Shown piece after piece: positions 13,651 through 38,553 of a stretch of DNA of 64,000 nucleotides. The notes below the pieces were generated by a model, which ran no database searches, was not told where the DNA came from, and was given only the letters and a program-made list of their open reading frames with translations. The number at the start of each line of letters is the position of its first letter. Position 1 is the stretch's first letter. The DNA is from Nitrospirales bacterium (lineage in GTDB: Bacteria; Nitrospirota; Nitrospiria; Nitrospirales; UBA8639), in assembly GCA_965223315.1 (NCBI GenBank), contig CBDCWD010000004.1, positions 875,759-939,758 on the forward strand. The letters are read 5' to 3'. The position numbers and the translations under genes are program-made.

Positions 13651-13912
13651 GGGTCTGTTCAAAAAACCTGCCCTGAGCGTGTCGAAGGATCACAATGAAC
13701 CTATCGAAGGATGGTTCGACGGGCTCACCATGATCGTTCTCACTCATCCCGAACCGTATGATTTATCATCCTGAGTCGTTCGACAAGCTCACGATGCACT
13801 CGCAGAACGGCTGAAGGATACATCCTGAGCCTGTCGAAGGGTTTTCGTGCTCCTTACTTCTCACTTTTCACTGGTCTAGAGAACGCCGCTGGCGGCTTTT
13901 TTCAACAGACCC
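13651..13912. mobile_element. MITE-like element with terminal inverted repeats and an internal REP array
   Basis: Starts GGGTCTGTTCAAAAAA and ends TTTTTTCAACAGACCC (15/16 inverted match). The interior has CCTGAGC.TGTCGAAGG / GTTCGAC..GCTCAC units. Confidence 0.75.
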
Positions 13913-14590
13913 TTAGTTATTTTCGAAGGCTTGGTGGGTCGCAAAGACTTCCCCGGGATGGATCAACAACAGGCAATTGCCATCTACGGGATCTTGGTGA
14001 AAGAGCGCAAAGGCCAGGCAGAGCTGAGGAGTTGGTTCCGGGGAAAACTCTAAAAGTAGAGGAACATCGATTAAGGGCGTGGGCTCTTTAAGACTGACCA
14101 GGCGGAGTCGTACCGCAACCAGTGTTTCGCGTACGCGGGTGTGAATGTGTTGTTCGGTAAGATCTGGAGAAGAAGAAATGTATTGCTGCCACAAAGGATT
14201 GGTCAGGCCCACGCAAAAATCCAAGCCAACCGTTTGAGCTAAGGGAGTGACATCTTTAAGAATCCCGGATTGTACCGCCTCTCTTCGTAGCCGGACTGTA
14301 AGCCGTTTCAGGTCGGGCGGGATTTCTTCAGGATTGATCGAATCTGCAGGAGGTATTTCCACCAGATCTCCTGCTTCAGAGGCATTACTCACCTCCTCCG
14401 CAGCGGGCAATGTGGGTAGATGGGTATCCTCAGTCCCTGGAATTGCAGGAGGGTTTTTATCGAGTGCCTGAATGATCCCCGCGTAGACCGATTTGGCAGA
14501 ATCGGTCCAGCTTTCATCTTGTGGTAATCCACGAAAAGCAGCTTCTGAGGCTTTCTTTTCATCATGTGTCAATTGGCGTGGTGATGTCAT
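13913..14590 (-). CDS. Hypothetical two-domain protein (short N-terminal domain, acidic/Pro linker, DUF6573-like C-terminal domain)
   Basis: 225-aa ORF. RREAVQSGILKDVTPLAQTVG resembles the RAQAIxDGxLVDV motif, recalled from memory. Confidence 0.6.
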   Translation of the reverse strand: MTSPRQLTHDEKKASEAAFRGLPQDESWTDSAKSVYAGIIQALDKNPPAIPGTEDTHLPTLPAAEEVSNASEAGDLVEIPPADSINPEEIPPDLKRLTVRLRREAVQSGILKDVTPLAQTVGLDFCVGLTNPLWQQYISSSPDLTEQHIHTRVRETLVAVRLRLVSLKEPTPLIDVPLLLEFSPEPTPQLCLAFALFHQDPVDGNCLLLIHPGEVFATHQAFENN

Positions 14591-14841
14591 AACTACAAGA
14601 TAAGTTAATTTGCTAGAAAGTCAAGTATTTGCGAGGAATGCTCGAGAAGGTGAAGCAATGCAGTAGAACTTAGAGAGCGTGACTAATTTTCATTGTGCGA
14701 AAACGCACCCTGGTGGCAGAGCGAAATCGCTCTACATAGACTGTGAATCATATTCTTAGGCTATGAAAAATCATCGTCATTACTATAATTTTATTATATA
14801 TTTCAATATTTTATGATAAATTATTGCCATGAAGGTATTAT

Positions 14842-14857
14842 TGGAATGTCATTTGCA
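14842..14857 (+). promoter_or_regulatory. Sigma54 promoter candidate
   Basis: TGGAATGTCATTTGCA = GG-N10-GC, preceded by a very AT-rich tract (about 14760-14830). Confidence 0.6.
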
Positions 14858-14903
14858 TTACTTATCTTTCAAGTTTCAATCAATATTCGTCAAGGAGAAT
14901 ACA

Positions 14904-14975
14904 ATGGATCCTATTTTTGATTTAGCCATGATTGTCGTAGTTGGAATCATGGTGGCTTTTAACATCTACGGGTAA
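14904..14975 (+). CDS. Small hydrophobic peptide (23 aa)
   Basis: MDPIFDLAMIVVVGIMVAFNIYG; AAGGAG RBS 6 nt before ATG; directly downstream of the sigma54 motif. Confidence 0.6.
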   Translation: MDPIFDLAMIVVVGIMVAFNIYG

Positions 14976-15322
14976 TACGGTTTCTTCATTTCTCTTTTGA
15001 TCAGCAGAAGAGAATTGAAAAAGTAGTAGTATTCAGCATTTCCACCCCGTATTTTCCTCCCTGTTTTTCCTTTTCTCGCTTCGTTCCTCTGTTCATTTAA
15101 AGTAGTTCTACGTAATTAAAAATTCATAAAATCAAGCTTTTTAAGGGATTTTTTCCAAAATTTCTTGAGGTGGCCTGTTCCGTCCTGGTATACCTTTTTT
15201 CACAGCTCTAATTTTCAGTTTTTTAGAAATTGCCAGTCCTTTTGAGTGTTAATGGAAGTGTTGAATACTACCAAACACCAGAAGCAAATTTGCTGATGAT
15301 CATGTTTGATGCCAAAAGCTTC

Positions 15323-15412
15323 GGGGCGGTTCAAAAAAGTTCATCCAGTCCTGTCCTGAGACATTTCGAAGGGAAGGCGAGAACGCCGCTGGTGGCTTTT
15401 TTCAACAGCCCC
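15323..15412. mobile_element. Short copy (90 bp) of the same MITE-like family
   Basis: Left end GGGGCGGTTCAAAAAAG vs reverse complement of the right end GGGGCTGTTGAAAAAAG. Shares GAGAACGCCGCTGG(C/T)GGCTTTTTTCAACAG with 13880-13908. Confidence 0.7.
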
Positions 15413-15429
15413 TTAATGTCGAAATTATC

Positions 15430-15524
15430 GAGTGCCTGACTCTTACGTTGAAACCAGGGTCGGTATCAATGAAAGCCGGTTTCTGTTTCTGGAATCTATT
15501 CCAGTAACAAGGACCGGTTTTTTT
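15430..15524 (+). promoter_or_regulatory. Structured 5' leader ending in an intrinsic-terminator-like hairpin (attenuator/riboswitch candidate)
   Basis: Arms 15471-15495 and 15498-15522 pair at 23/25 positions on the + strand (4 G-U); T7 run at 15518-15524; 110 bp before the SulP ATG. Confidence 0.55.
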
Positions 15525-15633
15525 GTCCTGATTTGTTGCAATCAACAATGTGTCTCTGTCATGACTCACGCCATCGGTAGGCCGAGATCAATATAGCGGA
15601 CAAACATTCTGACTTACTTCCTCCCGTCTCATC

Positions 15634-17271
15634 ATGCCCCCTAGCGTAAAGGACATTCCTAGAGGCCAGATTTCCGAATTCCCGAAGCATTGGCAACCCG
15701 ATATGATTTCGGGGTTTCTGGTGTTCTTGATCGCTCTTCCGCTGTGCCTAGGCATTTCCCTGGCCTGTGGCTATCCTGCCATAGCGGGCATCTTTACCGC
15801 GATTATCGGTGGAGTATTGGCCACCTTTTTTAGTAATTCAGAGCTCACCATCAAAGGGCCCGCGGCGGGACTCATTGTGATCGCCCTAGGATGTGTCACG
15901 GAATTTGGGTTTACAGGTGGGGAAGACCCTGCTGCTGACCTTCAAGCGTATCGCTTGGCCCTTGGCGTTGGTGTCGCCGCTGGATTGATCCAAATTCTTT
16001 TTGGAATCTGTCGCGCGGGAATTCTGGGAGAGTTTTTCCCGACCTCGGCAGTGCATGGCCTGCTCACGGCTATTGGAGTCATCATTATCGCCAAACAATT
16101 TCCGGTGGCCATGGGGTTGAGCCCAACAGGTACACCGTTGGAACTCTTGGCCAACATTCCACATTTTATTTTGAACATGAATCCCCTGGTTGGCCTCATT
16201 GGCGTGGTGAGTCTTGTCATCATGTTTGGGTATCCGTTTGTCAAGAATCCTCGGCTGAAGGCCATACCCGCGCCGATGCTTGTGCTGTGTATTACGGTTC
16301 CTTTAGCAATGTGGTTTGATATTGGGCAAGAGCAGACGTATGCTTTCCTAGGACAAGACTATCCATTGGGGAAGAATTTTCTGGTCGCGGTTCCAGAGAA
16401 TATGTTTTACGCCCTGACCTTCCCTGACTTTTCCGGTTTGGCGACGAGTATAGGGATAAAGTACGTGATCATGTTTGCGTTGATCGGCAGTATCGAATCC
16501 CTTCTCAGCGCAAAAGCGATTGATGAAATTGATCCATGGAAAAGAAAAACCGATCATGATCGAGATATGTTAGCGGTGGGAGTTGGCAATACACTGGCCT
16601 CATTTGTGGGCGGGCTTCCAATGATCTCGGAAATTGTTCGAAGCAAAGCCAATATTGACAATGGCGCACGCACTCGATTTGCGAATATGTTTCATGGTTT
16701 GTTTTTGCTGGGGTTTGTAGCGCTTGTGCCGGGTCTGATCAACCAAATCCCGCTTGCTGCTCTGGGAGCCATGCTGGTCTTTACGGGATTTCGACTAGCC
16801 TCCCCGCAGGAATTTCTCCATATGTGGCAGGTCGGCCGTGAGCAGTTTGTGATTTTTGTCTCAACGGTCATTGGAGTCTTGTCGACGGATTTGCTGATGG
16901 GTATCGCAATTGGCATTGGTGTGAATTTTCTCGTGCATCTCAAAAACGGAGCGCCTCCGAGGTCACTCTTGAAAACACAAGTGACGGTTGAACCGCAGGA
17001 ACGGGATGGCGTGGTTGTCCGGGTCAGGGATTCGGCGATTTTTAGTACATGGATTGGCCTGAAGAAAACCTTGGAGCCCCTCATGACCGAATCACGTGTG
17101 GTTCTGGATTTATCAGAGACGTTTCTGGTGGATCACACAGTTATGGCCAAACTCCAAGATATGGAAAAGGCTTTTCAGGAGCATGGTTCGACTTTAGTGC
17201 TGACAGGACTAGAACAGCATCAGCGACTCTCCAGTTACCCCACTGCTGCAAGGAAAAAACCTCGAACATGA
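15634..17271 (+). CDS. SulP/SLC26 anion permease with STAS domain (second, divergent copy)
   Basis: DMISGFLVFLIALPLCLGIS, TIKGPAAGL and GGLPMISEIVRS motifs, typical of SulPs linked to carbonic anhydrase or DAB genes. Confidence 0.92.
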   Translation: MPPSVKDIPRGQISEFPKHWQPDMISGFLVFLIALPLCLGISLACGYPAIAGIFTAIIGGVLATFFSNSELTIKGPAAGLIVIALGCVTEFGFTGGEDPAADLQAYRLALGVGVAAGLIQILFGICRAGILGEFFPTSAVHGLLTAIGVIIIAKQFPVAMGLSPTGTPLELLANIPHFILNMNPLVGLIGVVSLVIMFGYPFVKNPRLKAIPAPMLVLCITVPLAMWFDIGQEQTYAFLGQDYPLGKNFLVAVPENMFYALTFPDFSGLATSIGIKYVIMFALIGSIESLLSAKAIDEIDPWKRKTDHDRDMLAVGVGNTLASFVGGLPMISEIVRSKANIDNGARTRFANMFHGLFLLGFVALVPGLINQIPLAALGAMLVFTGFRLASPQEFLHMWQVGREQFVIFVSTVIGVLSTDLLMGIAIGIGVNFLVHLKNGAPPRSLLKTQVTVEPQERDGVVVRVRDSAIFSTWIGLKKTLEPLMTESRVVLDLSETFLVDHTVMAKLQDMEKAFQEHGSTLVLTGLEQHQRLSSYPTAARKKPRT

Positions 17272-17302: not shown

Positions 17303-20300
17303 GTGAGACAAGAAGTTTCGCCTTTGACTCAAGAAGAACGAACACTTCTGCACGATGTGATCGAAGCGGCCTGTGAGCCGATTGCACCGTTTTGGCCGAT
17401 GCGAACCATGGTGGCTCAGAATCCAATTCATGGTTTGGAATATCTCCCGTTCGATGAGGCTGTCCGGCAAGGAAAAGATCTGCTTGGAGGCAATGGATAT
17501 CTGTCAAATGAAGATTATCGGCGGTTGTATCGAGAGGGACGAATAACGTCCAACAGCATTCAACAAGCCTTAACCCATGTGGGTCCTCAGTCGCATACGC
17601 AAGATTCTATTCAGATCGGGGCGCAGCCAGTATCGTCTCAAGATATTTGGCGCTGGCATTTGGTGACTGGGTTTGAGGAGTTAGAGCCTGCTCTCTTGCA
17701 ATGGGAACTGAGTGGAGGCAGGGCAACCAAACAGTTTCGTTCAGATTTTCCTGCTGACTCTAAACAACGGATTGTCCAGCGCACCATCAAAGATTGTGAG
17801 CGATGTCGGGATTTTCCTGAAGAAGCCTATCTCACCAATCTGTGGAATGCGACCTTGAGAGCGTTAGGGCTGCATGAGTCTTCCTCAGAAAAAAATCATG
17901 GTCAAGAATCTTCATCAACTGTAGAACAAGAGAGCCGTGAGATACCTATTCACTTACCTGTTCAGCGAACGATGAGTGATTGGATTGAACGCTTGAGCGG
18001 TGTTCCGCTTGTCGAACAAATTAATAACCAGATGATCAAGTGGATTGCGGCTTTTGTTGACGAAGGATTGGCCGGATGGGAGATGCCACAAAAGCACAGA
18101 GGCTTTTTCCTCACGTGGCGAGAGCTTGTGCAATGGGATCACTCGGGCCATTTTCTCGGGATCTCTGATTTTCACCAAAAGGTCAGGGACCTATCTGATG
18201 ACCCGGAGGAGGTGATCGTTTCGTGCCTGCGCTGTTCGGGTGTCCCCCAAGCTGAATGGAAAGCCTATCTGTCGCGGGAGTTATCGCAATTGCCCGGATG
18301 GACCCGGTATATTCGATGGCTGGGAGAGCATCCCCGGTATCATGCTCAACGAAAGCAACCTATTGATGTGCGGCAATATTTGGCGGTTCGGCTGGTGTAT
18401 GAAGTGGAGCTCACTCAGGTAATCTGCCAAAGGGAATGGGGAATTGAAGGAACCGTCCCTGCATTGCAGGAATTTTGGGGAGAACGTGGTGGAGAGTACG
18501 AACACCCTATTGGGTTAGGCCGTTGTTCCGTCGATCCCATCACGCAGATGACATGTCGAGATGCTTGGCGCTTGTTTCATCTTGCTCAATGCTTAGAAGT
18601 TGCCCCCGCTGACATGCATGACCTTTCAAGGACAGACGCTCAGGTCTTATTGAGATGGCTTGATGCCTTTCCATCCGATTTGCACGGCCCAGTTTGGTTA
18701 GAGGCTTTGGAAGATTCCTTTCGCAAAGATATCCTGGGGAAACTCTCGCTCCATTGTCAGGGCGTGAAAGATGTCGATACGCGCCCGCAGGCCCAATTGG
18801 TGTTTTGTATCGATGTCCGCTCTGAGTCGTTCCGCCGTCATATCGAAGCACAAGGTCCTTACGAGACATTTGGCTTTGCGGGATTTTTTGGCATTCCCAT
18901 CAGTCACCAGGCCTTTGATAGCGAACAGCGGTCTGATTTATGCCCGGTATTGTTGACACCCAATCATGCTGTGAGAGAAGTCCCTCGATCTGAGGAAAAC
19001 GACTCTTTGCAGAGGTATTCTTCCGGTACTCGATGGTATCATCTTGGGCATCATCTCTTTCACGATCTGAAACATCATCCCATTGGTTCGATGATGGTCA
19101 TTGATGTCCTGGGTTTCTTTTTTAGTCTTGGGTTAGTCGGTAAAACGTTGCTTCAAAAAATATTTCGTGGAATCACGTCTACCATCGAAGATTGGTTCAC
19201 CCATCGTGTACGGACTCAGATCGCGGTTTCTGCCTCTTCGGACCCCACGCATCCGAAAATCGGAGAAGTGCATCCAGAAGGGATTCCCAGTGATCTGGCG
19301 CAAGGGTTTTCTTTGACGGAACAGGCGACGTTTATCGAAAACGGGTTACGGGCAATGGGGCTAACAAAAAATTATGCGCGTCTCGTCTGTCTTTGTGGCC
19401 ATGGAAGCGAGACGGATAACAATCCCTATTATGGCGCACTGGATTGCGGGGCTTGTGGGGGAGCGCCGGGGGATGCGAATGCGCGAGTTTTTGCCGCGAT
19501 GGCGAATTCACCTGACGTTCGCCGCGTTCTTGGAGAAAAAGGCCTGTCTATCCCCAGCGATACCTGGTTTCTTCCAGGGAAACATAATACGACGACGGAT
19601 CGTGTACAGTTTTACGATGTAGAAGATCTGCCGGATAGTCATCTAGAAGATTTACGTGTGTTGGAGAAGGATCTCAAAGAGGCCGGTGCGAACCAAGCCC
19701 TTGAGCGTTGTCATCGTCTTCCACATGCTCCCACACAAATTTCTCCAGAACATGCTTTGGCTCATGTGGAGGAGCGTAGTTGCGATTGGGCCAATACCCG
19801 GCCGGAATGGGGGCTTGCTGGCAATGCCGCGTTTTTAATCGGGCGACGCCGTCTCACGAAAGGGCTGGATCTGGGCGGGCGGGTCTTCTTGCATTCGTAT
19901 GATCCCATTGCGGACTCTGCGGGTGGCATCCTTGAGAAGATCATGACGGCTCCATTGATTGTAGGAGAGTGGATCAATACGGGATATTATTTTTCAGGAG
20001 CCGACCCATGGAAGTATGGAAGCGGCAGTAAGGTCTTGCACAATGTGGTGGGAGGTGTGGGAATGATGCTAGGAAGTCAAAGTGACTTACAAATGGGATT
20101 TCCTTTGCAGACCGTGAACGATGGAGACCGTCATTATCATGAGCCCATGCGTCTTCTTGCCATCATTGAACACACACCGTGTGTTATTTCGTCAATTATC
20201 CAAAAACATGGAATCCTTCAGCAGTTGTTTCATAATCAGTGGCTTCATCTTGTGGCGCTAGATCCTCATGCATATGAGTTTCATCAATATCATGCTGATG

Positions 20301-20332
20301 GGCGGTGGGAAAGGGTTTCTCCAACTGAGTAG
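17303..20332 (+). CDS. dabA: DabA (DUF2309) beta-carbonic-anhydrase-like subunit of an inorganic carbon pump
   Basis: IAPFWP..TMVAQNP N-terminus, FCIDVRSE (Cys/Asp), CGHGS (His), LDCGACGG (Cys), HNTTTD, RPEWGLAGNA and RVFLHSYD. All four Zn ligands are present. Confidence 0.95.
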   Translation: MRQEVSPLTQEERTLLHDVIEAACEPIAPFWPMRTMVAQNPIHGLEYLPFDEAVRQGKDLLGGNGYLSNEDYRRLYREGRITSNSIQQALTHVGPQSHTQDSIQIGAQPVSSQDIWRWHLVTGFEELEPALLQWELSGGRATKQFRSDFPADSKQRIVQRTIKDCERCRDFPEEAYLTNLWNATLRALGLHESSSEKNHGQESSSTVEQESREIPIHLPVQRTMSDWIERLSGVPLVEQINNQMIKWIAAFVDEGLAGWEMPQKHRGFFLTWRELVQWDHSGHFLGISDFHQKVRDLSDDPEEVIVSCLRCSGVPQAEWKAYLSRELSQLPGWTRYIRWLGEHPRYHAQRKQPIDVRQYLAVRLVYEVELTQVICQREWGIEGTVPALQEFWGERGGEYEHPIGLGRCSVDPITQMTCRDAWRLFHLAQCLEVAPADMHDLSRTDAQVLLRWLDAFPSDLHGPVWLEALEDSFRKDILGKLSLHCQGVKDVDTRPQAQLVFCIDVRSESFRRHIEAQGPYETFGFAGFFGIPISHQAFDSEQRSDLCPVLLTPNHAVREVPRSEENDSLQRYSSGTRWYHLGHHLFHDLKHHPIGSMMVIDVLGFFFSLGLVGKTLLQKIFRGITSTIEDWFTHRVRTQIAVSASSDPTHPKIGEVHPEGIPSDLAQGFSLTEQATFIENGLRAMGLTKNYARLVCLCGHGSETDNNPYYGALDCGACGGAPGDANARVFAAMANSPDVRRVLGEKGLSIPSDTWFLPGKHNTTTDRVQFYDVEDLPDSHLEDLRVLEKDLKEAGANQALERCHRLPHAPTQISPEHALAHVEERSCDWANTRPEWGLAGNAAFLIGRRRLTKGLDLGGRVFLHSYDPIADSAGGILEKIMTAPLIVGEWINTGYYFSGADPWKYGSGSKVLHNVVGGVGMMLGSQSDLQMGFPLQTVNDGDRHYHEPMRLLAIIEHTPCVISSIIQKHGILQQLFHNQWLHLVALDPHAYEFHQYHADGRWERVSPTE

Positions 20333-20374
20333 ACATGCAGGGAAGTGTTGAATAAATCTGAAGGTGCGATCTAA

Positions 20375-20902
20375 ATGACCAAAAACGTTGTTGGGCATGG
20401 GGCGCGGCCACGGCCGATTTCATCACAATTTTTGATCTTAAAGGCCACGGCACTATTCGTGTTGTGGATGATGTTATCGGCCCGTTTCGATTGGATCCAT
20501 CTTGGATTGGGCTTAGTCCTGTCTTTCGCGGTTGCCTGGATTAATTCCGGCCATTCTCCCTTTGTTCCCAAGTTTCGATTATGGGGCAATATCCTGCTCT
20601 ATCTTCCCTGGCTTTTTGTGAAAATCGTACAAAGTAGTCTTCACCTCTCAAAGCTGATTCTTCATCCCGCGCTTCCCATAAATCCTCGGCTAATCAAAGT
20701 TGAGACGAAGTTGGGGCATCATGCAGCCGTGGTGCTGCTTGGCAATTCCATTACCTTAACTCCCGGAACGATTACCGCAGAAGTGGATCGTAATACTCTC
20801 ATCGTGCATGCCATGGATGAAGTTGCCGCCGAAGATGTCACAAGCGAGCGGATTGAATCGAAAATTGCTGAAATTTTTAAGAATGAAGAGCCTGATTTGT
20901 GA
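20375..20902 (+). CDS. mrpE: Mrp/Mnh Na+/H+ antiporter subunit E
   Basis: LGNSITLTPGTITAEV and LIVHAMD motifs. Confidence 0.92.
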   Translation: MTKNVVGHGARPRPISSQFLILKATALFVLWMMLSARFDWIHLGLGLVLSFAVAWINSGHSPFVPKFRLWGNILLYLPWLFVKIVQSSLHLSKLILHPALPINPRLIKVETKLGHHAAVVLLGNSITLTPGTITAEVDRNTLIVHAMDEVAAEDVTSERIESKIAEIFKNEEPDL

Positions 20903-21165
20903 AAATATTTCTTCTCGGTGTCTTATTACTCTTAGCCCTCCTCATTGGTGTCTATCTTTATCGTGTGCTTCAGGGCCCTACAATTTTTGATCGCGTCCTG
21001 GGTCTCAATGGCATTTCCACCAAGGCGATCATTTTACTGATTGTGATGGGTATGTATTTTGAGCGAGTCGACATGTTTGTCGATATCTCGACGGGATATG
21101 CTCTCTTAAATCTAGTGGGAGCTCTTGCCGTCGCCAAGTTTCTGGAACAAAGAGGACTGCCGTAA
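20899..21165 (+). CDS. mrpF: Mrp/Mnh subunit F
   Basis: YRVLQGPTIFDRVL motif; overlaps the mrpE stop. Confidence 0.9.
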   Translation: MKIFLLGVLLLLALLIGVYLYRVLQGPTIFDRVLGLNGISTKAIILLIVMGMYFERVDMFVDISTGYALLNLVGALAVAKFLEQRGLP

Positions 21166-21166
21166 C

Positions 21167-21466
21167 ATGGAAGTGCTTGCCATAGGTTGTATTCTCGCCG
21201 GGCTATTTTTTTTGATTGTTGCGGCAATCGGCGTGATTCGCCTGCCCGATGTGTTTAGTCGGTCTCATGCGGTGTCACTTACAGACTCGTTGGGGGCCTT
21301 TTTGATGCTCGTGGGTGTGGCGCTTCATGAGGGCTTGAGCGCGAGTATGCTGAAAATCATAGCGGTCCTGGCACTACTGTACATCCAAAATCCGGTCATT
21401 GCCCATGCGACTGTTCGCGCAGCGCTTCGTGCTGGCTTGAAGCCCTGGAAAAAGGAGCATTCATGA
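21167..21466 (+). CDS. mrpG: Mrp/Mnh subunit G
   Basis: IGVIRLPDVFSRSHA and NPVIAHA motifs. Start set to ATG 21167, 1 bp after the mrpF stop. Confidence 0.9.
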   Translation: MEVLAIGCILAGLFFLIVAAIGVIRLPDVFSRSHAVSLTDSLGAFLMLVGVALHEGLSASMLKIIAVLALLYIQNPVIAHATVRAALRAGLKPWKKEHS

Positions 21467-21993
21467 TATTTTCCTATGAAATTCCCCTCCTGGTTTTACT
21501 GCTCGTGACAGCAGCCGGCGCGATCTTAGTCAAGGATCTGATGAGCGCCATCTTATTGTTGGGTTGCTACAGTTTTTTCCTTGCCTTGGTGTGGGCGTGG
21601 CTGGGTGCGGTTGATGTGGCGTTTGTCGAAGCCGTCGTTGGCGCTGGTTTAGCCACCGTGCTTTTCTTACTCACCCTATTTGGAACCGCACCAAAAGACA
21701 ATCGTCTCAGGCGGCCTCCGCCTCCGATGGCGGCACTGATTGCCCTTCCGCTTCTGGGAGTTCTGTTGCTCTATGCCGCAAACGATCTTCCAGAGTTTGG
21801 AGATCCACGTTCCCCGGCCAGTGTGCATATTTCACCGACATATCTCGAACAGAGTTATCCAGATTCTCATACGCCAAATGTCGTGACATCGGTCCTGATG
21901 GATTACCGGTCCCTTGATACCATGGTGGAAACGGTGGTGATTTTTACCGCAGGCATTGCTTGCGCACTATTGTTGCGGAGGCAACCCTCATGA
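21463..21993 (+). CDS. Mrp subunit: DUF4040 (MrpA C-terminal piece) fused to the MrpB N-terminal piece (MbhD/E-like)
   Basis: LGAVDVAFVEAVVGAG and TPNVVTSVLMDYRSLDTMVE motifs. Confidence 0.85.
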   Translation: MIFSYEIPLLVLLLVTAAGAILVKDLMSAILLLGCYSFFLALVWAWLGAVDVAFVEAVVGAGLATVLFLLTLFGTAPKDNRLRRPPPPMAALIALPLLGVLLLYAANDLPEFGDPRSPASVHISPTYLEQSYPDSHTPNVVTSVLMDYRSLDTMVETVVIFTAGIACALLLRRQPS

Positions 21994-22442
21994 TTCGCCC
22001 TCACGATAGTGTTATCGTGCAGACCTTAGGACGGTTTCTGATTCCGGTGATCCAGATTTTTGGTTTGTATGTGTTGTTTTTTGGCCAATATGGCCCTGGG
22101 GGAGGATTTGTTGGAGGGGTGATATTAGGCACCGGCATGATCTTATCGGTGCTCATTTTTGGCCACGATGCTTCCCGGAGCCAGATTGCGAAAAAAGTGT
22201 TGCACGGCGATGGAGTCGGCATGTTGATTTATGCCGGCGTTGGCGGATTGTGCATGATTGGCGGCGGGGAATTTCTCAACTATGCCAATTTGGAGATTCC
22301 GGGGCTTGAGACGGCTTCACGCCGATCTTTGGGAATTGTGTTGACGCAAATTGGCGTGGCTGTGGACGTGGCTGTGACGGCGGTGTCCATTGTCTTCAGT
22401 CTTTCTGCCGAAGAAATTATTGAGGATTCAATGAATGGGTGA
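21990..22442 (+). CDS. mrpB: Mrp/Mnh subunit B (MbhF-like)
   Basis: GQYGPGGGFVGG motif; ATGA overlap with the previous gene. Confidence 0.88.
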   Translation: MIRPHDSVIVQTLGRFLIPVIQIFGLYVLFFGQYGPGGGFVGGVILGTGMILSVLIFGHDASRSQIAKKVLHGDGVGMLIYAGVGGLCMIGGGEFLNYANLEIPGLETASRRSLGIVLTQIGVAVDVAVTAVSIVFSLSAEEIIEDSMNG

Positions 22443-22812
22443 TCTGTTTTCTGCCGTCTTTCAGCGCCCCAACTTTTTGACGTTTGTCATTATCTTCCTG
22501 TGGGGCTTTTATATCATGGTGACCCGGTACAACCTCGTCAAGAAATTGGTCGGATTGTATCTTGTCCAGACCAGCGTGATTTTTTTCCTGGTCTCTATTA
22601 GTGCGAAAAAGCACTCGACAGTCCCGGTCCTGCTGTCGACAACTGAACCTGTGCGAGCCATGAACTATGCGAATCCGTTGCCACATGTGCTGACGTTGAC
22701 AGCTATTGTGGTGGGTGTCGCCACGCTGGGTGTGGCATTGGCGTTGTGTGCGGCTATTTATCGACGATACGGCAGTCTTGATGAGGAAGAGATTTTAAAA
22801 AAACTAGAATGA
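22435..22812 (+). CDS. mrpC: Mrp/Mnh subunit C (NuoK-like)
   Basis: NLVKKLVGL and NPLPHVLTLTAIVVG motifs. Confidence 0.92.
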   Translation: MGDLFSAVFQRPNFLTFVIIFLWGFYIMVTRYNLVKKLVGLYLVQTSVIFFLVSISAKKHSTVPVLLSTTEPVRAMNYANPLPHVLTLTAIVVGVATLGVALALCAAIYRRYGSLDEEEILKKLE

Positions 22813-24278
22813 GGCATCATTTCCCAGCCCTGCTCTTTCTGTTCCCTTTGTTTGCCGCGATCGCCATGCCGGTTGTCTGTTTGAGGCACCGGCAGTGGAG
22901 CCGGCCCATCGCTCTCGCGGTGCTTGGCGCCATGGTTGTGGTCTCTATTCTGAATCTGAATAGCGTCATTAATGATGGAGAAGTGCGATATGCCTTCAGT
23001 GGCTGGATTGCACCATTAGGCATTGAGTGGGTCGCGGATGGATTGGCGAGTGTCATTATGGTGACGTTGAGTACGTTGGGTTTGCTGGCGTTGGTATTTA
23101 CCGGTCCCACTTCACCAAAAGATTTGGGGGGACGGATCGTTCATTATCATATCTTGATCTTGTTGCTTATTTCCGCGCTTACCGGAATCGTGTTTGCGGG
23201 AGATCTCTTTAATCTATTTGTGTTTTTGGAAGTCGCGGCCATATCCAGTTATGCGCTGATTGGTGTGGCCGGCGGGCGAGCGCTGTTTGCGGCGTTTCGC
23301 TACCTTGTGCTGGGGACGCTTGGGGCGTCTCTCTACTTACTGGGCGTGAGTTATTTCTACGCAGCCAGTGGCACGCTCAATATGGCAGATATGGCAGAGA
23401 AGCTTCCCCAACTCTTGACTTCCAAAGCGGTTGTGGGCGGGCTTCTGTTTATGTTCATTGGGTTGGGTATCAAGATGGCGTTGGTGCCATTTCATGCATG
23501 GTTGCCGGATGCCTATACCTATGCCCCCGAATCCATCTCTCCTATCTTAGCGGCATTAGTGACCAAAGTGGCGTTGTTAGGGTGGGTCCGCATTATTTAC
23601 TGGGTCTTGGGGGCTAAGGCCATTGTGTACGACATTCCCGTGCTCGTGCTCGTGGGGGTACTTGGCACTCTGGCAGCGGTCATTGGGGCGGTTCTGGCCT
23701 TGTCGCAGCGGGATATAAAGATGATGTTTGCCTATGGAGGAATTTCCCATATTGGCATCATTCTTATTGGCGTGAGTCAAGGGAATCATACGGGATTTGT
23801 CGGGGGTATTTTTTATTTACTAAACGATGCCGTGATGCAAGCGGCCTTGTTTTTTTTAGCAGGGGTCGCGATCTGCCAGTATGGCGTTCGGACTGTCGAG
23901 GATCTTGGAAAGATTGGGAAGCGCGCGCCTTGGTTTACGGGGGGCTTGGTCGTGGTGGCGTTGGGCATGATCGGCCTTCCTCCAACTGGGGGCTTTTTTG
24001 GAAAATGGTATATCATTCTCGGAGCGCTTGAAGCCAATAATTATATTGCGGTCGCCGCGGTTTTACTTTCAACTCTTTTGACGCTTGCCTATTTCGTCAG
24101 ACTATTTGAGGCGCTCTTTCGTCCGCTGGCCTCTGACTCGGAAACCGCATTCGGGGATATTCCGTTTCCGTTTAAACTGAGTGTGGGAGTAACGTCGGCG
24201 GCCGTCATGATCTTGGGACTGTTCAGCGACCCGATTGTTCAGTTTTTGTTGAATCAGGCTCTGCCACCAGGTATCTAA
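22809..24278 (+). CDS. mrpD: Mrp subunit D-type antiporter-like subunit
   Basis: GDLFNLFVFLE, KMALVPFHAWLPDAY, LVTKVA and GLPPTGGFFGKW motifs. Confidence 0.9.
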   Translation: MRHHFPALLFLFPLFAAIAMPVVCLRHRQWSRPIALAVLGAMVVVSILNLNSVINDGEVRYAFSGWIAPLGIEWVADGLASVIMVTLSTLGLLALVFTGPTSPKDLGGRIVHYHILILLLISALTGIVFAGDLFNLFVFLEVAAISSYALIGVAGGRALFAAFRYLVLGTLGASLYLLGVSYFYAASGTLNMADMAEKLPQLLTSKAVVGGLLFMFIGLGIKMALVPFHAWLPDAYTYAPESISPILAALVTKVALLGWVRIIYWVLGAKAIVYDIPVLVLVGVLGTLAAVIGAVLALSQRDIKMMFAYGGISHIGIILIGVSQGNHTGFVGGIFYLLNDAVMQAALFFLAGVAICQYGVRTVEDLGKIGKRAPWFTGGLVVVALGMIGLPPTGGFFGKWYIILGALEANNYIAVAAVLLSTLLTLAYFVRLFEALFRPLASDSETAFGDIPFPFKLSVGVTSAAVMILGLFSDPIVQFLLNQALPPGI

Positions 24279-24286
24279 CCAAGGCC

Positions 24287-26386
24287 ATGGCGATCTTTGT
24301 TCTCATCCCTTTGCTTCCTCTCATGGCTTCGCTTGTCCTTGTGCTTGGAGGACGACGATGGGGCGAGCACAGCCACCGAATTGGCATTCCTGCCATTGGT
24401 CTGTCTTTTGGTTTGTCGGTGTTTGCCTTTCTTGAGGTTCTGCGCCACGGGCCTTTCTCGCTCTCTCTGTATCGTTTCTTTCAGTCCGGGGCGTTGACCA
24501 TTAATTTCAGCCTTTATGTGGATCAACTCACGGTTCTCCTTTTGCTCTTGGTCACAGGTGTGAGCGCTCTTGTGCATGTCTATTCGTCTCGATACATGAT
24601 CGGGGACCCACGATACAATCGGTTCTTTGCGGTCATCGCATTGTTTACCTTTTCCATGGTGCTACTTGTCATGAGTGGCAATCTCTTGATGTTGCTCGTC
24701 AGTTGGGAGGTGATGGGTATCTGCTCATATCTCTTAATCTCCCATGCCGCACAAAGACCCTCGGCCGGACGGGCAGCGACCAAAGCATTCTTGGTGAATG
24801 CGGTGGCGGATGTGGGGTTAAGTTTTGGAATTATCTTGACCTTTTTTACATTCGGCACGCTCGACATTCAGACCATTCTCGCCCAGGCTGACAGCATGCA
24901 ACATCAGACGGTCAATATCATGGGATGGATCGGGGGCAATCTTGCTGTGAATCCCGTGACGTGGATTCCTTTCTTTCTGTTCTTAGGAGCCATGGGCAAG
25001 TCAGCTCAAATGCCCTTTCATGTATGGTTGCCATTTGCCATGGAAGCCCCTACTCCAGTCTCGGCGTTAATTCACGCGGCCACGATGGTGAATGCCGGTC
25101 CGTTCCTGCTCGTGCGGCTGAGCCCCTTGCTCGTCCTTTCTCCGTTCACCATGACATTCATTGCGGTCATTGGAGCCAGCACGGCGCTGTTTGCGGGTCT
25201 TGTTTCATTGACGCAGTCGGACATCAAAAAGATCTTGGCGTATTCCACGATTAGCCAAATTGGTTTCATGATCATGACCTGCGGTTTAGGTGCGTTTGTT
25301 GTGACGATCTTTCATCTCCTTGCTCATGGCTGTTATAAAGCGTTCTTTTTTCTGTCCACTGGTAATGCGCTCCGGTCGGTGGAGCCGGGTCGTGTCCATA
25401 GAGGAAATCATGAGCATCATAGTCCGCAGGGCATGGGAATGTTGTATGGGGGCGCGCTGGCCTTAGCGTTGATTCCTCCGATTATTCTGTTTTCAGGGGC
25501 ATATGAATACTTGTGGGGGGTAACGGGATTTGCCTCTGCCACAATGGGATTTCGCGTCATTGGTCTAATCACTGTCTTTGTGGCTTCTCTGTATCTTTTC
25601 CGAAGTGTCACGTCGCTATTTGTTTATGGTCCGAAGACGTATTGGCCGGTTTCCGGCCAATTGGGATCACAGACGCATTCCATCCGGCCGCAGTTTGTGA
25701 ATGGGGCGATTTTGACTGGGCTTTTCGTCGCCACTCTTGTCATCGGGGCGATGTTGACCCTGTTTTGGACGTGGTTTGCCAACTTCTTAGCTCCAGCGTT
25801 GATCTCACCCACGGCGGTGTTCCATGAAGGAACGGATAAGGCGGGCCTCTCGATATGGATGCTCATGGCTATTGGAATGGCGATTGCCGGATGGGCCTAT
25901 GCCTACTGGCAGGTTCAATCAGGCTCGCAGGTCGCAACAGCAGGCAGTAGGAACAAAAAGTTATACGTCCTCTTCTGGAATAAATGGTATTTTGATGAAT
26001 TCTATGATGTCTATGTGGTGAATCCCACCATTCGGTTTGCCGAATGGCTTTGGCGCTTCGTTGATGTGAATGTGATCGATGCATTCATACATTCCATCGC
26101 GACCTACTCCATTCTTTTGGCCCAGTGGCTCTGGCGAATCGTGGATATCAAAGGCATTGATCGAATGGTGATGGGTATCGGACGGCAGAGTGTTGGAATG
26201 GGCAGTTGGCTGTGGCAAGTGGTGGATATTCGATGGCTGGAACAGAGAGTCAGTCAAATGGGCAGACAAGCGGATACGGCAGGGCAACTCTTACAAGAGG
26301 TTGAACCTCGTACCCTCCAACACCAACTACTTGTCATGATATTTTGGCTGGTCTTGGCAACTGGGCTATTATATCTTTTGGTGTAA
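24287..26386 (+). CDS. NuoL/MrpA/DabB-family antiporter-like subunit with an extended lateral helix
   Basis: SWEVMG, GKSAQMPFHVWLPFAMEAPTPVSALIHAAT and KKILAYSTISQIG motifs; three 27-aa repeats in the C-terminal amphipathic helix. Confidence 0.9.
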   Translation: MAIFVLIPLLPLMASLVLVLGGRRWGEHSHRIGIPAIGLSFGLSVFAFLEVLRHGPFSLSLYRFFQSGALTINFSLYVDQLTVLLLLLVTGVSALVHVYSSRYMIGDPRYNRFFAVIALFTFSMVLLVMSGNLLMLLVSWEVMGICSYLLISHAAQRPSAGRAATKAFLVNAVADVGLSFGIILTFFTFGTLDIQTILAQADSMQHQTVNIMGWIGGNLAVNPVTWIPFFLFLGAMGKSAQMPFHVWLPFAMEAPTPVSALIHAATMVNAGPFLLVRLSPLLVLSPFTMTFIAVIGASTALFAGLVSLTQSDIKKILAYSTISQIGFMIMTCGLGAFVVTIFHLLAHGCYKAFFFLSTGNALRSVEPGRVHRGNHEHHSPQGMGMLYGGALALALIPPIILFSGAYEYLWGVTGFASATMGFRVIGLITVFVASLYLFRSVTSLFVYGPKTYWPVSGQLGSQTHSIRPQFVNGAILTGLFVATLVIGAMLTLFWTWFANFLAPALISPTAVFHEGTDKAGLSIWMLMAIGMAIAGWAYAYWQVQSGSQVATAGSRNKKLYVLFWNKWYFDEFYDVYVVNPTIRFAEWLWRFVDVNVIDAFIHSIATYSILLAQWLWRIVDIKGIDRMVMGIGRQSVGMGSWLWQVVDIRWLEQRVSQMGRQADTAGQLLQEVEPRTLQHQLLVMIFWLVLATGLLYLLV

Positions 26387-26412
26387 TCAACTTCCTGGAT
26401 AGGGGCCTGCTG

Positions 26413-27918
26413 ATGAGCATATTCACTGATCATATTATTAGTTGGATGATTGCGGTTCCCTTTTTAGGAATCGTTGCCCTTGCATTTCTCCGCGATGAAG
26501 AATGGATTCGCCGAATGGCTTTCGCCACAACGATGGCGGAGTTTCTGCTCTCGCTGATCTTGTGGAGGAACTTCGATTTCACTCAACAGGGTATGCAATT
26601 CGTTGAGCGTATGGAATGGATGCCTACCTTCAATATTCAGTATGCCGTTGGTGTAGATGGGATCAGCATCCTGTTAGTCATCCTCACCGCTCTTCTGTGT
26701 CCACTTTGCGTTCTGTGTTCGTGGAGTGCCATTACCACGCGGGTGCGAGCCTATTTGTCGTTGATTTTACTGGTGGAAGGCGCGATGATCGTCGTGTTTA
26801 CAGCCTTAGATCTTTTCCTGTTTTTCATGTTGTGGGAACTCACCATGATTCCCATGTATTTCATGATCATTCTTTGGGGAGGGCCCAATCGCATCACGGC
26901 GGGAATTAAATTTGTCTTGTACAGCTTGACAGGCAGTTTATTGTTGCTCGTGGGAATTCTTGGCCTCTACTTGGAAGGCGGACATACCTACGATCTGTTG
27001 GTTCTCAGCGAACAAACCTATTCCTCGAAGACACAATTCTGGCTATTCCTGGCGCTCTTTTTGGCGTTTGCCATCAAAATGCCCATGGTGCCTTTTCACA
27101 CCTGGTTGCCAGACGCACATTCCGAGGCCCCGACTGCTGGCAGCGTGATTTTAGCGGGAGTGCTACTAAAAATGGGGGGCTATGGATTCTTGCGCTTTTG
27201 CTTGCCGATGTTTCCCGAAGCCTCAGCCAAGTTTGCTCCGTATATATTATGGCTTTCGGTTATCGCCATTGTCTATGGCGGCTACATGGCGTTAGCGCAG
27301 ATTGACCTCAAAAAACTTGTGGCATACTCGTCGGTTTCACATATGGGATTTGTCACCCTTGGGATTTTTGTCTTTAACAGTCAGGGCATCCAAGGGGCCA
27401 TCTTGCAAATGTTCAATCACGGCATTACAACCGCCGCGCTCTTTATTTCAGTTGGTCAGCTGTACGACCGCACCCATAGCCGGGTTATCAGTGACTATGG
27501 CGGCTTGCATAAACCCATGCCGAAATTTGTGGCGTTTTTTTTCTTGTTCTCAGTTGCGGCATTTGGCCTGCCAGGCACCTGTAATTTCATTGGCGAGTTT
27601 TTGGTGCTGGTCGGGACGTCCTATGTGAATTTCGCCATGGTCCTGATTTCCATGGGAGGTATTGTCTTAGCGGCGGCCTATATGCTGTGGATGCTGCAAC
27701 GGTTGGCGTTGGGTGAGCCTTCCACGAAGGTGGCGGCAGTCCTTCCTGATCTCACCACTCGCGAGTTGGCCTCGGTGATTCCTTTGGCCATTGTTGTCCT
27801 GTGGATCGGGTTATATCCTGGCCCTCTTATGGAAATGATGGATGCAAGCGTGACGCACCTCGTTCAGCAGGTCGCTGCATACACATCCCCTCTTCCTGAA
27901 AACACGGTCCTGCGTTAA
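26413..27918 (+). CDS. NuoM-type antiporter-like subunit
   Basis: VGVDGIS, WELTMIPMY, KMPMVPFHTWLPDAH, LLKMGGYG, QMFNHG and NFIGEF are canonical NuoM motifs. Start set to ATG 26413. Confidence 0.92.
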   Translation: MSIFTDHIISWMIAVPFLGIVALAFLRDEEWIRRMAFATTMAEFLLSLILWRNFDFTQQGMQFVERMEWMPTFNIQYAVGVDGISILLVILTALLCPLCVLCSWSAITTRVRAYLSLILLVEGAMIVVFTALDLFLFFMLWELTMIPMYFMIILWGGPNRITAGIKFVLYSLTGSLLLLVGILGLYLEGGHTYDLLVLSEQTYSSKTQFWLFLALFLAFAIKMPMVPFHTWLPDAHSEAPTAGSVILAGVLLKMGGYGFLRFCLPMFPEASAKFAPYILWLSVIAIVYGGYMALAQIDLKKLVAYSSVSHMGFVTLGIFVFNSQGIQGAILQMFNHGITTAALFISVGQLYDRTHSRVISDYGGLHKPMPKFVAFFFLFSVAAFGLPGTCNFIGEFLVLVGTSYVNFAMVLISMGGIVLAAAYMLWMLQRLALGEPSTKVAAVLPDLTTRELASVIPLAIVVLWIGLYPGPLMEMMDASVTHLVQQVAAYTSPLPENTVLR

Positions 27919-36463: not shown

Positions 36464-38553
36464 GCAGGCGATCCTCCGTTTTCACTCGTTCCGGGTAGAG
36501 TAATGGTAAACCGAGAGCCCTGCCCGAGTGTGCTCGAGAAGTCGAGTGTTCCACCCATGGCCGCGACCAGGCTATGGCTAATAGACAAGCCTAGTCCCAT
36601 ACCACCATCTGTCTGCCCTTGCTTCGTTGAAAAGAATGGTTCAAAGATATGCGACGCGATGTCTGGCGAGATGCCCTGGCCATGGTCAATGACATGGATC
36701 GTGATCGTATCGGATTCCGTATCGGTGATGACCTCAATAGTATCATGCGGCTGCGATGTGTCGATAGCGTTTTGGAGCAAGTTACAAAGTACTTGAATCA
36801 TTTCGTTTCTGGGTGCCCGGCACAATAAGGGATGCTGGATATTGGCCACGATTTCAACTCCGTGCTTTGAGGAAGGGCGTTGCATAATGTCAATGGCATT
36901 CTGAATGGGTATCCGAACATCGAGTGTCGACGGAACAGGACTGCTTGGGCGGTAAAGTTGATAGAGGCGTGCCGTAATCTGCGAAATGCGTTCGATGCAG
37001 TCCTCGACTTTGGCCATATACCGGTAGTGCGGATGTTTATGAGGAATGGCTCGCTTCAGAAGCACCAAAGATTGTGAAATGCTGGCAAGTGGATTATTAA
37101 TCTCATGTGCCACTCCGGCGGCTATTTGCGCTAATGCTGCCAATTTTTCGACCTGCATGCGCCGCTGTTCCAATTCTTGAATGCGCTGTGTGCGGTGCCG
37201 GATCGTCGCTTCCAATTCAACATTGTGCCTGCGGATGGTTTCCTGGGCTTCTTTTTCTGTGGAAATATCCTGAATGATTAAGGCGAGATAATCCGCCTCT
37301 CCAGAGGAATCTCTCACAAATTGGGCAGATAATTTTGCATAGAGAACTGTACGATCCTTTCGGATAAAGCGTGTTTCACACAAGACTCGTTCTATCGTTC
37401 CCGTGATGAGTTGTTGGAGGTGGTCGTGAATTGTCTGGCGGTCGTCTGAATGTATGAGGTCCGTCCATGATTGTTCCGCCAGTTCTTCTCGTGTATAGCC
37501 GAGCATGTCACAGAGGTAATCATTGACTTCTATCCATTGGTGTTGCGGAGAGGTGATAGCCATGCCGACCAGCCCGGCTTCAAAATAGGCGCGAAAACGT
37601 TTTTCACTGGCATAGAACGCCGCTTCTGCTTTCTTCATATCGGAAATATCAATGACGTTGGCCACACGGCAACGTACCTCGCCGCGAGGGTCTTTGATGT
37701 CGGAAATAGTGAGCAAGGCCGGGAATGTTGTCCCATCTTTACGGACATGAAGGGCTTCAAACGAATGAAGTCCATGTTCATGAATGAGACGAATATGTAG
37801 CGGGAGTTGTTTTTGAGATTCCGTGGCAAAAACTTGGGCAATCGACTTGCCTTGTAACTCTTCCACCGTGTATCCGTGCATGCGCGCGTATGCTTCATTG
37901 ACCATATCTAATGTTTGACTGTTGGCGCTTCCCACAGCCATGCCCCATTGGGTCTGGTGAAAAACGCTGGTCCATTGCTGGAGTTGAACCTGGGTTTTGT
38001 TCCAGTCGGTGATATCGTGGCCGGTACCAATGACCCCGGAAGGTTCTTGGGTTTCGTCGGGCGGGCGGTCAATGTTCCACAAGATATCGTGCCGTTGGCC
38101 CAATATGATTGTTGCCCAAATGACGCAGAGGGTCATTATTCGATTGACTATATGATCCCAGGACTCCTTCCCTTCCGGAAAAAGATAGAATCCTGCAATG
38201 GTCAATGCCGAGCAGCCTATAGCAGTCCATAGCGGGATGTGGGTTTGTCGGTGGCGAAGGCTGAGAAGGACAATAAGAACATAGGGGATCCCGCCGGCAA
38301 CTCCACGTGGAGCCATCAGGTCAATGATGAAGATAGTGCCAGCACTGACGATTAACAGCCAAGGATGTGACAGAGCCTGACTCTGGTGCAAGTCTTGGGA
38401 AGGGGGATTCACGGTGCCTGCCCATATGCTTGAGATGTGGGTAGCATTGTTTTGACGTGTTGGGAGAGAGAAGTGTAGCGAATTACATGATAACTGACAA
38501 AGGGGTCGTTGAAAAAATCCACCAGTGGCGTGCTGGCCATTTTCCCGTGTCAC
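36460..38553 (-). CDS. Membrane PAS-PAS sensor histidine kinase
   Basis: TM segments, two PAS/PAC domains, AHEINNPL and GGMGLGL. The start may be GTG 38412. Confidence 0.88.
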   Translation of the reverse strand: MTRENGQHATGGFFQRPLCQLSCNSLHFSLPTRQNNATHISSIWAGTVNPPSQDLHQSQALSHPWLLIVSAGTIFIIDLMAPRGVAGGIPYVLIVLLSLRHRQTHIPLWTAIGCSALTIAGFYLFPEGKESWDHIVNRIMTLCVIWATIILGQRHDILWNIDRPPDETQEPSGVIGTGHDITDWNKTQVQLQQWTSVFHQTQWGMAVGSANSQTLDMVNEAYARMHGYTVEELQGKSIAQVFATESQKQLPLHIRLIHEHGLHSFEALHVRKDGTTFPALLTISDIKDPRGEVRCRVANVIDISDMKKAEAAFYASEKRFRAYFEAGLVGMAITSPQHQWIEVNDYLCDMLGYTREELAEQSWTDLIHSDDRQTIHDHLQQLITGTIERVLCETRFIRKDRTVLYAKLSAQFVRDSSGEADYLALIIQDISTEKEAQETIRRHNVELEATIRHRTQRIQELEQRRMQVEKLAALAQIAAGVAHEINNPLASISQSLVLLKRAIPHKHPHYRYMAKVEDCIERISQITARLYQLYRPSSPVPSTLDVRIPIQNAIDIMQRPSSKHGVEIVANIQHPLLCRAPRNEMIQVLCNLLQNAIDTSQPHDTIEVITDTESDTITIHVIDHGQGISPDIASHIFEPFFSTKQGQTDGGMGLGLSISHSLVAAMGGTLDFSSTLGQGSRFTITLPGTSENGGSPA

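Follow-up and report, generated by a model that had tools for sequence, protein, structure and literature searches.

A covarying leader RNA with an intrinsic terminator precedes SulP, DabA, MrpE and NhaD genes in Nitrospirales and is probably an ON-type transcription attenuator

The described leader RNAs that are closest to the element reported here are the monovalent-cation riboswitches. The Na+-I riboswitch (DUF1646 motif) is composed of two extended stems, P1 and P2, and its conserved nucleotides form clusters in the P2 loop and at the lower end of P1 (PMC9337991). It is found as a leader before ion-transport genes, including nhaD, and its terminator overlaps the sensor, with the folded sensor leading to read-through (White et al. 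2022, PMC9337991). The nhaA-I motif (Li+-I) resembles DUF1646 and occasionally precedes nhaD; its description likewise includes two extended stems and groups of conserved nucleotides at the P1 base and in the P2 loop. Another set of comparable systems is formed by the compact-hairpin leaders, for example folE/THF-II, the HMP-PP thiS motif located in a terminator, the pH-responsive alx element of E. coli, and the RAT antiterminators of BglG/SacY. In these leaders, the closing helix of an irregular hairpin competes with an adjacent terminator, and the conserved nucleotides lie in an internal loop and not in a multi-helix junction. To our knowledge, the regulation of inorganic-carbon (Ci) uptake in chemolithoautotrophs outside the cyanobacteria is largely unknown, and our literature search found no riboswitch linked to DAB or SulP carbon-uptake genes.

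We analyzed a leader region of a Nitrospirales bacterium within a DNA stretch of 64 kb, which is called the window throughout. The preliminary description of positions 15430-15524 had read this region as a riboswitch-like leader with a loose likeness to monovalent-cation motifs. The part of this reading that stood is a real terminator within a conserved, covarying leader family, and the idea of a riboswitch-like leader found partial support for the family as a whole, whereas its specific switch model and the resemblance to known cation riboswitches were not supported. Infernal searches against Rfam gave no match to nhaA-I, nhaA-II or DUF1646. With Rfam 15, which was assumed to hold both nhaA models (nhaA-I and nhaA-II), nothing was detected at the element at gathering thresholds, either on the whole window or on nine related loci. 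At E<=10, positions 14500-15750 returned only noise, and at E<=1, 11 consensus-like loci returned nothing at the element.

Upon comparison with Na+-I, the family was found to be similar in its predicted terminator-overlapping ON layout, its position as an ion-transport leader, its theme of Na+/H+ antiporters and the shared nhaD. In contrast to Na+-I, the Nitrospirales leader family does not contain two extended stems; it consists of a single variable-loop hairpin flanked by two boxes, gave no Infernal match, has a different taxonomy and precedes different main genes (SulP and DabA). Li+-I and Li+-II (nhaA-I and nhaA-II) are likewise ON-type, cation-responsive leaders before antiporter genes, the ON response being a prediction in our case, but what defines them is a link with nhaA genes together with consensus structures of their own, and we found neither nhaA nor a match to their models. 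Like folE/THF-II, thiS, alx and RAT, the family has a compact irregular hairpin next to a terminator, but the Rfam scans gave no sequence or model similarity to them. The theme of Na+, pH or Ci sensing put forward earlier fits the gene set associated with the family, which comprises NhaD, Mrp-like subunits, DabA/MpsB with MpsC, and SulP.

The features of the locus are given below in window coordinates. Columns refer to A7, a MAFFT alignment of 51 unique family members, 47 of which lie outside the four-genome group that includes the window (the window group).

15165 to 15194, forward strand: sigma70-like promoter, with the -35 element TTGAGG at 15165-15170, an 18-nt spacer, and TGG plus the -10 element TATACC at 15189-15194.
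15322 to 15414, no strand assigned: palindromic REP/MITE-like repeat of 93 nt, which folds as a long hairpin and is an insertion in the leader alignment.
15426 to 15434, forward strand: 5' box in the variant form UAUCGAGUG, A7 columns 15-23; the family consensus is UGUAGGGUR.
15436 to 15463, forward strand: P1 hairpin (RNAalifold), in which CUGACUCU (15436-15443) pairs with AGGGUCGG (15456-15463) around a 12-nt variable loop.
15465 to 15477, forward strand: 3' box in the variant form AUCAAUGAAAGCC, A7 columns 55-67; the consensus is nACAGUACAAGCC, and its last bases begin the terminator.
15471 to 15524, forward strand: intrinsic terminator with the GC-rich base AGCCGG/CCGGU, then U7 at 15518-15524.
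15634 to 17271, forward strand: SulP-family anion transporter with a STAS domain (Pfam PF00916, E 4.6e-57).
17303 to 20332, forward strand: DabA, 1009 aa (Pfam PF10070, E 6e-264).
17303 to 27918, forward strand: DabA followed by Mrp/Mnh-like subunits (PF01899, PF04066, PF03334, PF04039, PF00420, PF00361).

RNAfold of 15470-15526 revealed a 22-bp interrupted hairpin at 15471-15522 of the forward strand, with four G-U pairs and two 1x1 mismatches, and U7 (15518-15524) directly on its 3' side. The hairpin with U7 noted earlier was therefore real, at 22 bp rather than 25 bp, the difference being due to A-U pairs that had been counted at its base. The other sequence elements named in that account were also present where it had placed them: GAGTG at 15430-15434, CCTG at 15435-15438, CAGG at 15455-15458, GTCGGT at 15459-15464, AGCCGGT at 15474-15480 and T7 at 15518-15524. 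The predicted free energy of the hairpin was -26.6 kcal/mol on the forward strand versus -19.6 kcal/mol on the reverse strand. The 106-nt region around it folded at -38.4 kcal/mol (z = -4.86; none of 200 shuffles was equally good), and its reverse strand gave z = -2.68. The forward strand thus carries the stable GC-rich hairpin and U-tract of an intrinsic terminator, while the reverse-strand hairpin is weaker and has no U-tract; a bidirectional terminator was ruled out for these reasons and because no convergent gene was present. By these predictions, the hairpin with U7 is a strong forward-strand intrinsic terminator. It is kept at the equivalent locus in 11 close relatives and in approximately 55 sequences across the family, which is far beyond chance.

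SulP is the first gene on the 3' side of the element, and Pfam assignments confirmed the order SulP-DabA-Mrp given in the preliminary description. The SulP protein belongs to the NCBIfam sulP subfamily with a score under the BicA equivalog cut-off, and bicarbonate as its putative substrate is for this reason suggested by the DabA neighborhood. The Mrp/Mnh-like set consists of MnhE, F and G, an MbhD/E-like protein, MnhB, a NuoK-like protein and three Proton_antipo_M proteins. DabA of the window, with 1009 aa against the 747 positions of the Pfam profile, is paired with this full set and its three Proton_antipo_M subunits, and not with a single DabB. In relatives, the Mrp module can be a transcription unit apart from DabA, and each then has its own copy of the leader RNA.

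Covariance-model searches revealed approximately 55 related elements, all in Nitrospirales save one in Nitrospinota. The element was present at 11 syntenic Nitrospirales/Nitrospirota loci, which were identified from SulP-anchored loci and by a DNA pattern scan, and a covariance model (R1) was built from the 12 close sequences. On 80 SulP-homologue loci, R1 identified approximately 45 forward-strand copies, including those of a clade with about 70% SulP identity (hereafter the 70% clade), and further copies were identified among 41 loci derived from a box-based pattern scan; pattern matches in other phyla all failed R1. No second copy was found in the 64-kb window with models R1 and R2, and a pattern scan of metagenome contigs gave only chance matches in coding DNA. 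Weak R2 matches were observed at L046 901-1009 (E 0.005) and L050 958-1070 (E 0.02), 300-430 nt upstream of SulP; both loci are from NPIRA MAGs and may represent further diverged copies.

The genes directly downstream of family copies were SulP, DabA, MrpE and NhaD, and never nhaA. Copies precede DabA at L072/L147, L104/L141 and L132, and probably also at L091 and L094, while those at L112, L113 and L126 precede MrpE. The NhaD-upstream copy is at L148; the NhaD assignment comes from the homologous protein of L072, which scored 502 bits with the NhaD_1 equivalog. An MpsC gene adjoins one DabA copy. Each copy examined had a sigma70-like promoter approximately 100-130 nt upstream. In the 70% clade, the distance from the U-tract to the ATG is only about 25-40 nt with the Shine-Dalgarno sequence included, leaving no room for a promoter, and the gene would therefore be expressed by read-through alone. 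We also noted in this clade that MpsC (PF10057; L072 3776-4150, reverse strand) is divergent from the DabA leader copy and that an NhaD antiporter gene (L072 47-1030, forward strand) lies upstream of SulP. NhaD and SulP are adjacent with the element missing between them at L064, L066-L069, L074 and L077, and just the 3' half of the terminator remains between them at L090.

The family members share, in order, the 5' box UGUAGGGUR, the P1 hairpin, the 3' box and the intrinsic terminator. As the preliminary description had proposed, covariation among orthologous leaders was examined, and P1 and the terminator base were found to covary across the 51 sequences. P1 (columns 24-31:47-54) and the terminator base (columns 63-72:111-120) were 92.3% paired in A7, and changes on both sides occurred in 13 of their 18 pairs, including seven of the eight P1 pairs. 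Column shuffles matched the observed pairing in 0 of 500 cases on four of five measures and in 2 of 500 on the fifth, and slid controls gave a pairing of only 18-56%. The terminator base was present as GCCGGUU:AACCGGC, GCCAACC:GGUUGGC, GCCGACC:GGUCGGC, GCCAGUC:GACUGGC and ACCAGUC:GGCUGGU. In all 51 members, a U-rich run follows a hairpin of -18.5 to -30 kcal/mol; in the near group, this run is interrupted by G. Positions G16, U17, G20, G21, A58, G59, U60 and C67 were invariant in all 47 members outside the window group.

A covarying structured domain that recurs ahead of functionally related genes, which is the general mark of a regulatory leader, was thus found, and no description of the motif was retrieved by a literature search. 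The family is apparently an undescribed leader RNA that is specific to Nitrospirales and carried by marine nitrite oxidizers. It is present in more than 50 Nitrospirales genomes, many of them from sponge symbionts, before four types of genes for Na+/H+/Ci transport, and a leader supported by covariation offers a testable handle on the regulation of Ci uptake.

Two readings of the P1 region were rejected. Leader-peptide attenuation was discarded on inspection, as the P1 loop often has an ATG, but the frames it opens differ between relatives, stop early (L006 and the window frame) or are missing (ACG in L014). If TGTAGGGT were a -10 element, or TGGCC..GTAG a sigma54 site, transcription would start 6-8 nt downstream and the covarying 5' strand of P1 would be cut; in addition, the DabA copies have GTGGGGT or GTGTGGT, and TTGGCC is just 6 nt away.

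The terminator of the window sits between the sigma70-like promoter at 15165-15194, which reads TTGAGG-N18-TGGTATACC, and the SulP start at 15634. The transcription start is putatively placed near 15200; the runs found to contain the window or the L070 or L089 loci were all DNA metagenomes. Relatives, L005 included, keep both promoter hexamers and differ in the spacer. In the stretch from promoter to element, close relatives (L001-L024) have a hairpin "A" with abundant compensatory changes (alignment A3, columns 36-85), and other clades carry different hairpins there. The window has a deletion of the 5' half of this hairpin and an insertion of approximately 130 nt, including the 93-nt repeat. 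The repeat is absent from the relatives at the matching place, and its insertion accounts for the promoter-element distance of approximately 240 nt in the window compared with about 100-130 nt in the others.

The locus L005 retains the promoter and the flank just before the element, lacks P1 and the terminator, and has 206 nt between the promoter and the SulP ATG. This arrangement argues for the conserved promoter as that of the operon and for a terminator located in the leader. The same observation bears on a different reading, in which the unit from promoter to terminator encodes an independent, trans-acting small RNA (about 190 nt long in relatives, about 320 nt in the window), with SulP having its own promoter. 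A promoter and a strong terminator would bound such a discrete transcript, hairpin A covaries in relatives, and part of the sequence ahead of the SulP start is conserved in the window group. Against this, the promoter of L005 reads into SulP, no promoter-like site was found between the terminator and the SulP start (15525-15633), the 70% clade has no promoter room after its U-tract, and the copies immediately precede four functionally linked gene types. We therefore consider a small RNA very improbable.

Directly upstream of the -35 element, at approximately 15095-15165 of the forward strand, we observed a strongly conserved block of about 70 bp (AAAGTAKTTCTACGTAATTAAAA..TTCATAA...TTTTTAAGGRATTTTTT), which is conserved even in L005, where the terminator is missing. 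This block resembles a transcription-factor binding region, and the operon is probably also under promoter-level control.

To describe the possible antiterminator, we turn to transcripts that end before the 3' arm of the terminator. For the 70% group and the near group, RNAalifold predicted that (U)GUA:UAC(A), together with G21-C57, forms a closing helix beneath P1; the window group gave no such prediction. The closing helix is nearly invariant, with A/G opposite U (wobble-type) as its only variation, and covariation thus neither proves nor refutes the closure. Outside this helix, an upstream GGY or GRCC can pair with AGCC(GG) at the terminator start. In the MFE structures of truncated transcripts, AGCCGG was paired with the 5' flank in 42 of 47 members, compared with 41.5% when the flank was shuffled, and the excess was present in all three subgroups. 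In 34 of 38 unique sequences, this was also the architecture of the best duplex of 14 nt by 13 nt (median shuffle p 0.08); these single-sequence tests are modestly above shuffles, and the sequences are mutually related. A broader duplex test of 42 nt of flank versus the terminator 5' arm was no better than shuffles, the signal being confined to the constrained tests.

Individual members revealed compensatory changes in the flank pairing. L106 has AAACC with GGU in place of the usual AAGCC with GGC, and L085 has AUGCC with GGCA, giving a GGCA:UGCC pairing. L006/L036 have GGCC:GGCC, where a single U-to-C change improves the flank pair and breaks a terminator pair. Other antiterminators, namely GGGUC with GACC of the terminator 3' arm, P1-5' GCU with AGC, and P1-3' with the terminator 5' arm, were rejected as they were not conserved on inspection and were not the MFE structures; L106 and L085 favor the flank pairing over them.

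We assign a probability of roughly 0.6 to a joint reading in which the family has the layout of an ON-type transcription attenuator and the hairpin with U7 is the expression platform of a window leader RNA that is transcribed from the promoter at 15165-15194 before the SulP-DabA-Mrp operon. In a typical member, the nascent RNA would close a long irregular hairpin, in which the flank GGY/GRCC pairs with AGCC(GG), (U)GUA pairs with UAC(A), and the two boxes are opposed as an internal loop beneath P1. While this extended hairpin is held, the terminator base would be sequestered and the polymerase would read through; when it opens, the terminator of -20 to -30 kcal/mol would form. The extended hairpin would be stabilized by a ligand or factor tied to Na+/H+/Ci transport. 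We infer, rather than show, where transcription starts, that termination is conditional and of ON polarity, and the presence and nature of a ligand.

The layout in the preliminary description was also of the ON type, but it was built on other pairings, in which the terminator 5' arm pairs with GUCGGU and CCUG pairs with CAGG. Neither pairing was conserved. The first was predicted at -2.6 kcal/mol with three G-U pairs and the second at -3.4 kcal/mol, and together they reach -6.0 kcal/mol compared with -8.2 kcal/mol for the window P1 helix (CUGACUCU:AGGGUCGG) on the same nucleotides. In 8 of 12 close relatives, A or C stands in place of the middle G of GUCGGU, and this position covaries with its P1 partner (UA in five, UG in four, CG in one and GC in one). 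Among the 51 folds of truncated transcripts, a single one paired P1-3' with the 5' arm of the terminator.

The same pairing could serve an OFF switch, in which an unstabilized P1 frees its 3' strand to block the terminator and a ligand-locked P1 terminates. GUCGGU:GCCGGU can be drawn in the window group and, on inspection of the alignment, a stronger CCGGC:GCCGG in the 70% clade, and an OFF response to abundant Ci would be physiologically sensible, while an ON response is not an obvious logic for Ci-uptake genes if bicarbonate were the signal. However, the pairing is not conserved in the near group, the DabA and MrpE copies or L085, and the single MFE case and the energies given above also stand against it; we consider an OFF switch of this kind quite improbable.

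With regard to what an ON-type attenuator would sense, the conserved core is small, being one irregular hairpin with a variable loop, and it would suit a protein site as well as a ligand pocket. Tentatively, and with more doubt than confidence, the family can be read as a new class of riboswitch whose direct ligand is an ion or small molecule that reflects the Na+/H+ or Ci status, with the window sublineage as a natural specificity variant. If ligand binding is true, the family would be an orphan riboswitch class with a theme of ion homeostasis and carbon; if a new class is true, it would control SulP, DabA/MpsB, Mrp-like and NhaD transporters of marine and sponge-associated nitrite oxidizers.

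The same switch logic could instead operate with a protein sensor, as a protein-dependent attenuator in which the boxes and the irregular helix bind an RNA-binding antiterminator or terminator-promoting protein. A small core with highly sequence-specific stems and boxes is typical of protein sites, the closing helix (P0) has no true covariation, and no Rfam aptamer matched. However, no gene for a candidate RNA-binding protein travels with the element, its neighbors being transporters, MpsC and a 225-aa protein without a Pfam or NCBIfam family, and the element precedes four gene types in differing neighborhoods. We regard a protein sensor as unlikely, but as a serious rival.

The copy in the window differs from the typical member. 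The window, L001, L002 and L023 form a sublineage with the changes G16A, A18C, G20A and G59A; in the other 47 members, G16, G20 and G59 are invariant and A18 is kept in 43. Neither the closure nor the flank pairing was found in the window group (p 0.54-0.80 in the duplex test, and truncated folds), and the evidence for switching thus stems from the other members and not from the window copy, which lacks the antiterminator. On inspection, a shifted register with the pairs (15,61), (16,60), (17,59) and (19,57) is possible in the window copy, where the tandem G-U/U-G pairs of the main family would be replaced by A-U/U-A pairs in the window group.

These differences are also what a decayed relic would show, in which the sensor has been lost, the plain terminator insulates or damps the operon, and control is exerted at the promoter. 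The four substitutions fall at invariant or near-invariant positions, the antiterminator is absent, the leader is disrupted in other ways (the partial deletion of hairpin A and the 93-nt repeat in the window; insertions of 300-380 nt downstream of the terminator in L001 and L023), and the strong conservation of approximately 70 bp ahead of the -35 element suggests control by a transcription factor. Against decay, the variant 5' box is identical or differs by 1 nt across the four window-group genomes, and their P1 stems are conserved. Between the window and L001, the boxes are identical at 13 of 13 and 11 of 13 positions, whereas the P1 loop agrees at 5 of 14 positions and the flank at 4 of 10. 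The retention of the boxes and P1 stems while the loop and flanks drift argues for continuing constraint. Furthermore, no promoter is visible downstream of a terminator of approximately -26 kcal/mol with U7, and unregulated termination would therefore be costly. We consider a relic less likely than not. The window copy may differ from the family in its specificity or its mechanism, or it may be mostly constitutive as an attenuator and damp the operon, and its sublineage provides a natural set of mutants and variants for dissecting the core.

Several minor observations were made around the element. Partial copies of the REP/MITE-like repeat are present at 13879-13914 and 38508-38531 of the window. 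This repeat is a point where contigs from the source metagenome break and accumulate, with a summed depth of approximately 44,000 versus about 113 in the adjacent sequence, which indicates hundreds of copies in the genome or community. A divergent gene on the reverse strand (13913-14590) encodes the 225-aa protein mentioned above, for which no Pfam or NCBIfam family was found; it is syntenic in close relatives with 64-74% identity. Finally, a 23-codon ORF, MDPIFDLAMIVVVGIMVAFNIYG, is located at 14905-14975 of the forward strand, within the 1-kb intergenic region, with a strong AAGGAG Shine-Dalgarno sequence in front of it and a covarying hairpin behind it. All close relatives conserve this ORF, most of the changes in it being synonymous or conservative, and it has no Pfam match. 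It lies just upstream of the operon promoter and probably encodes a genuine membrane peptide, small and hydrophobic.
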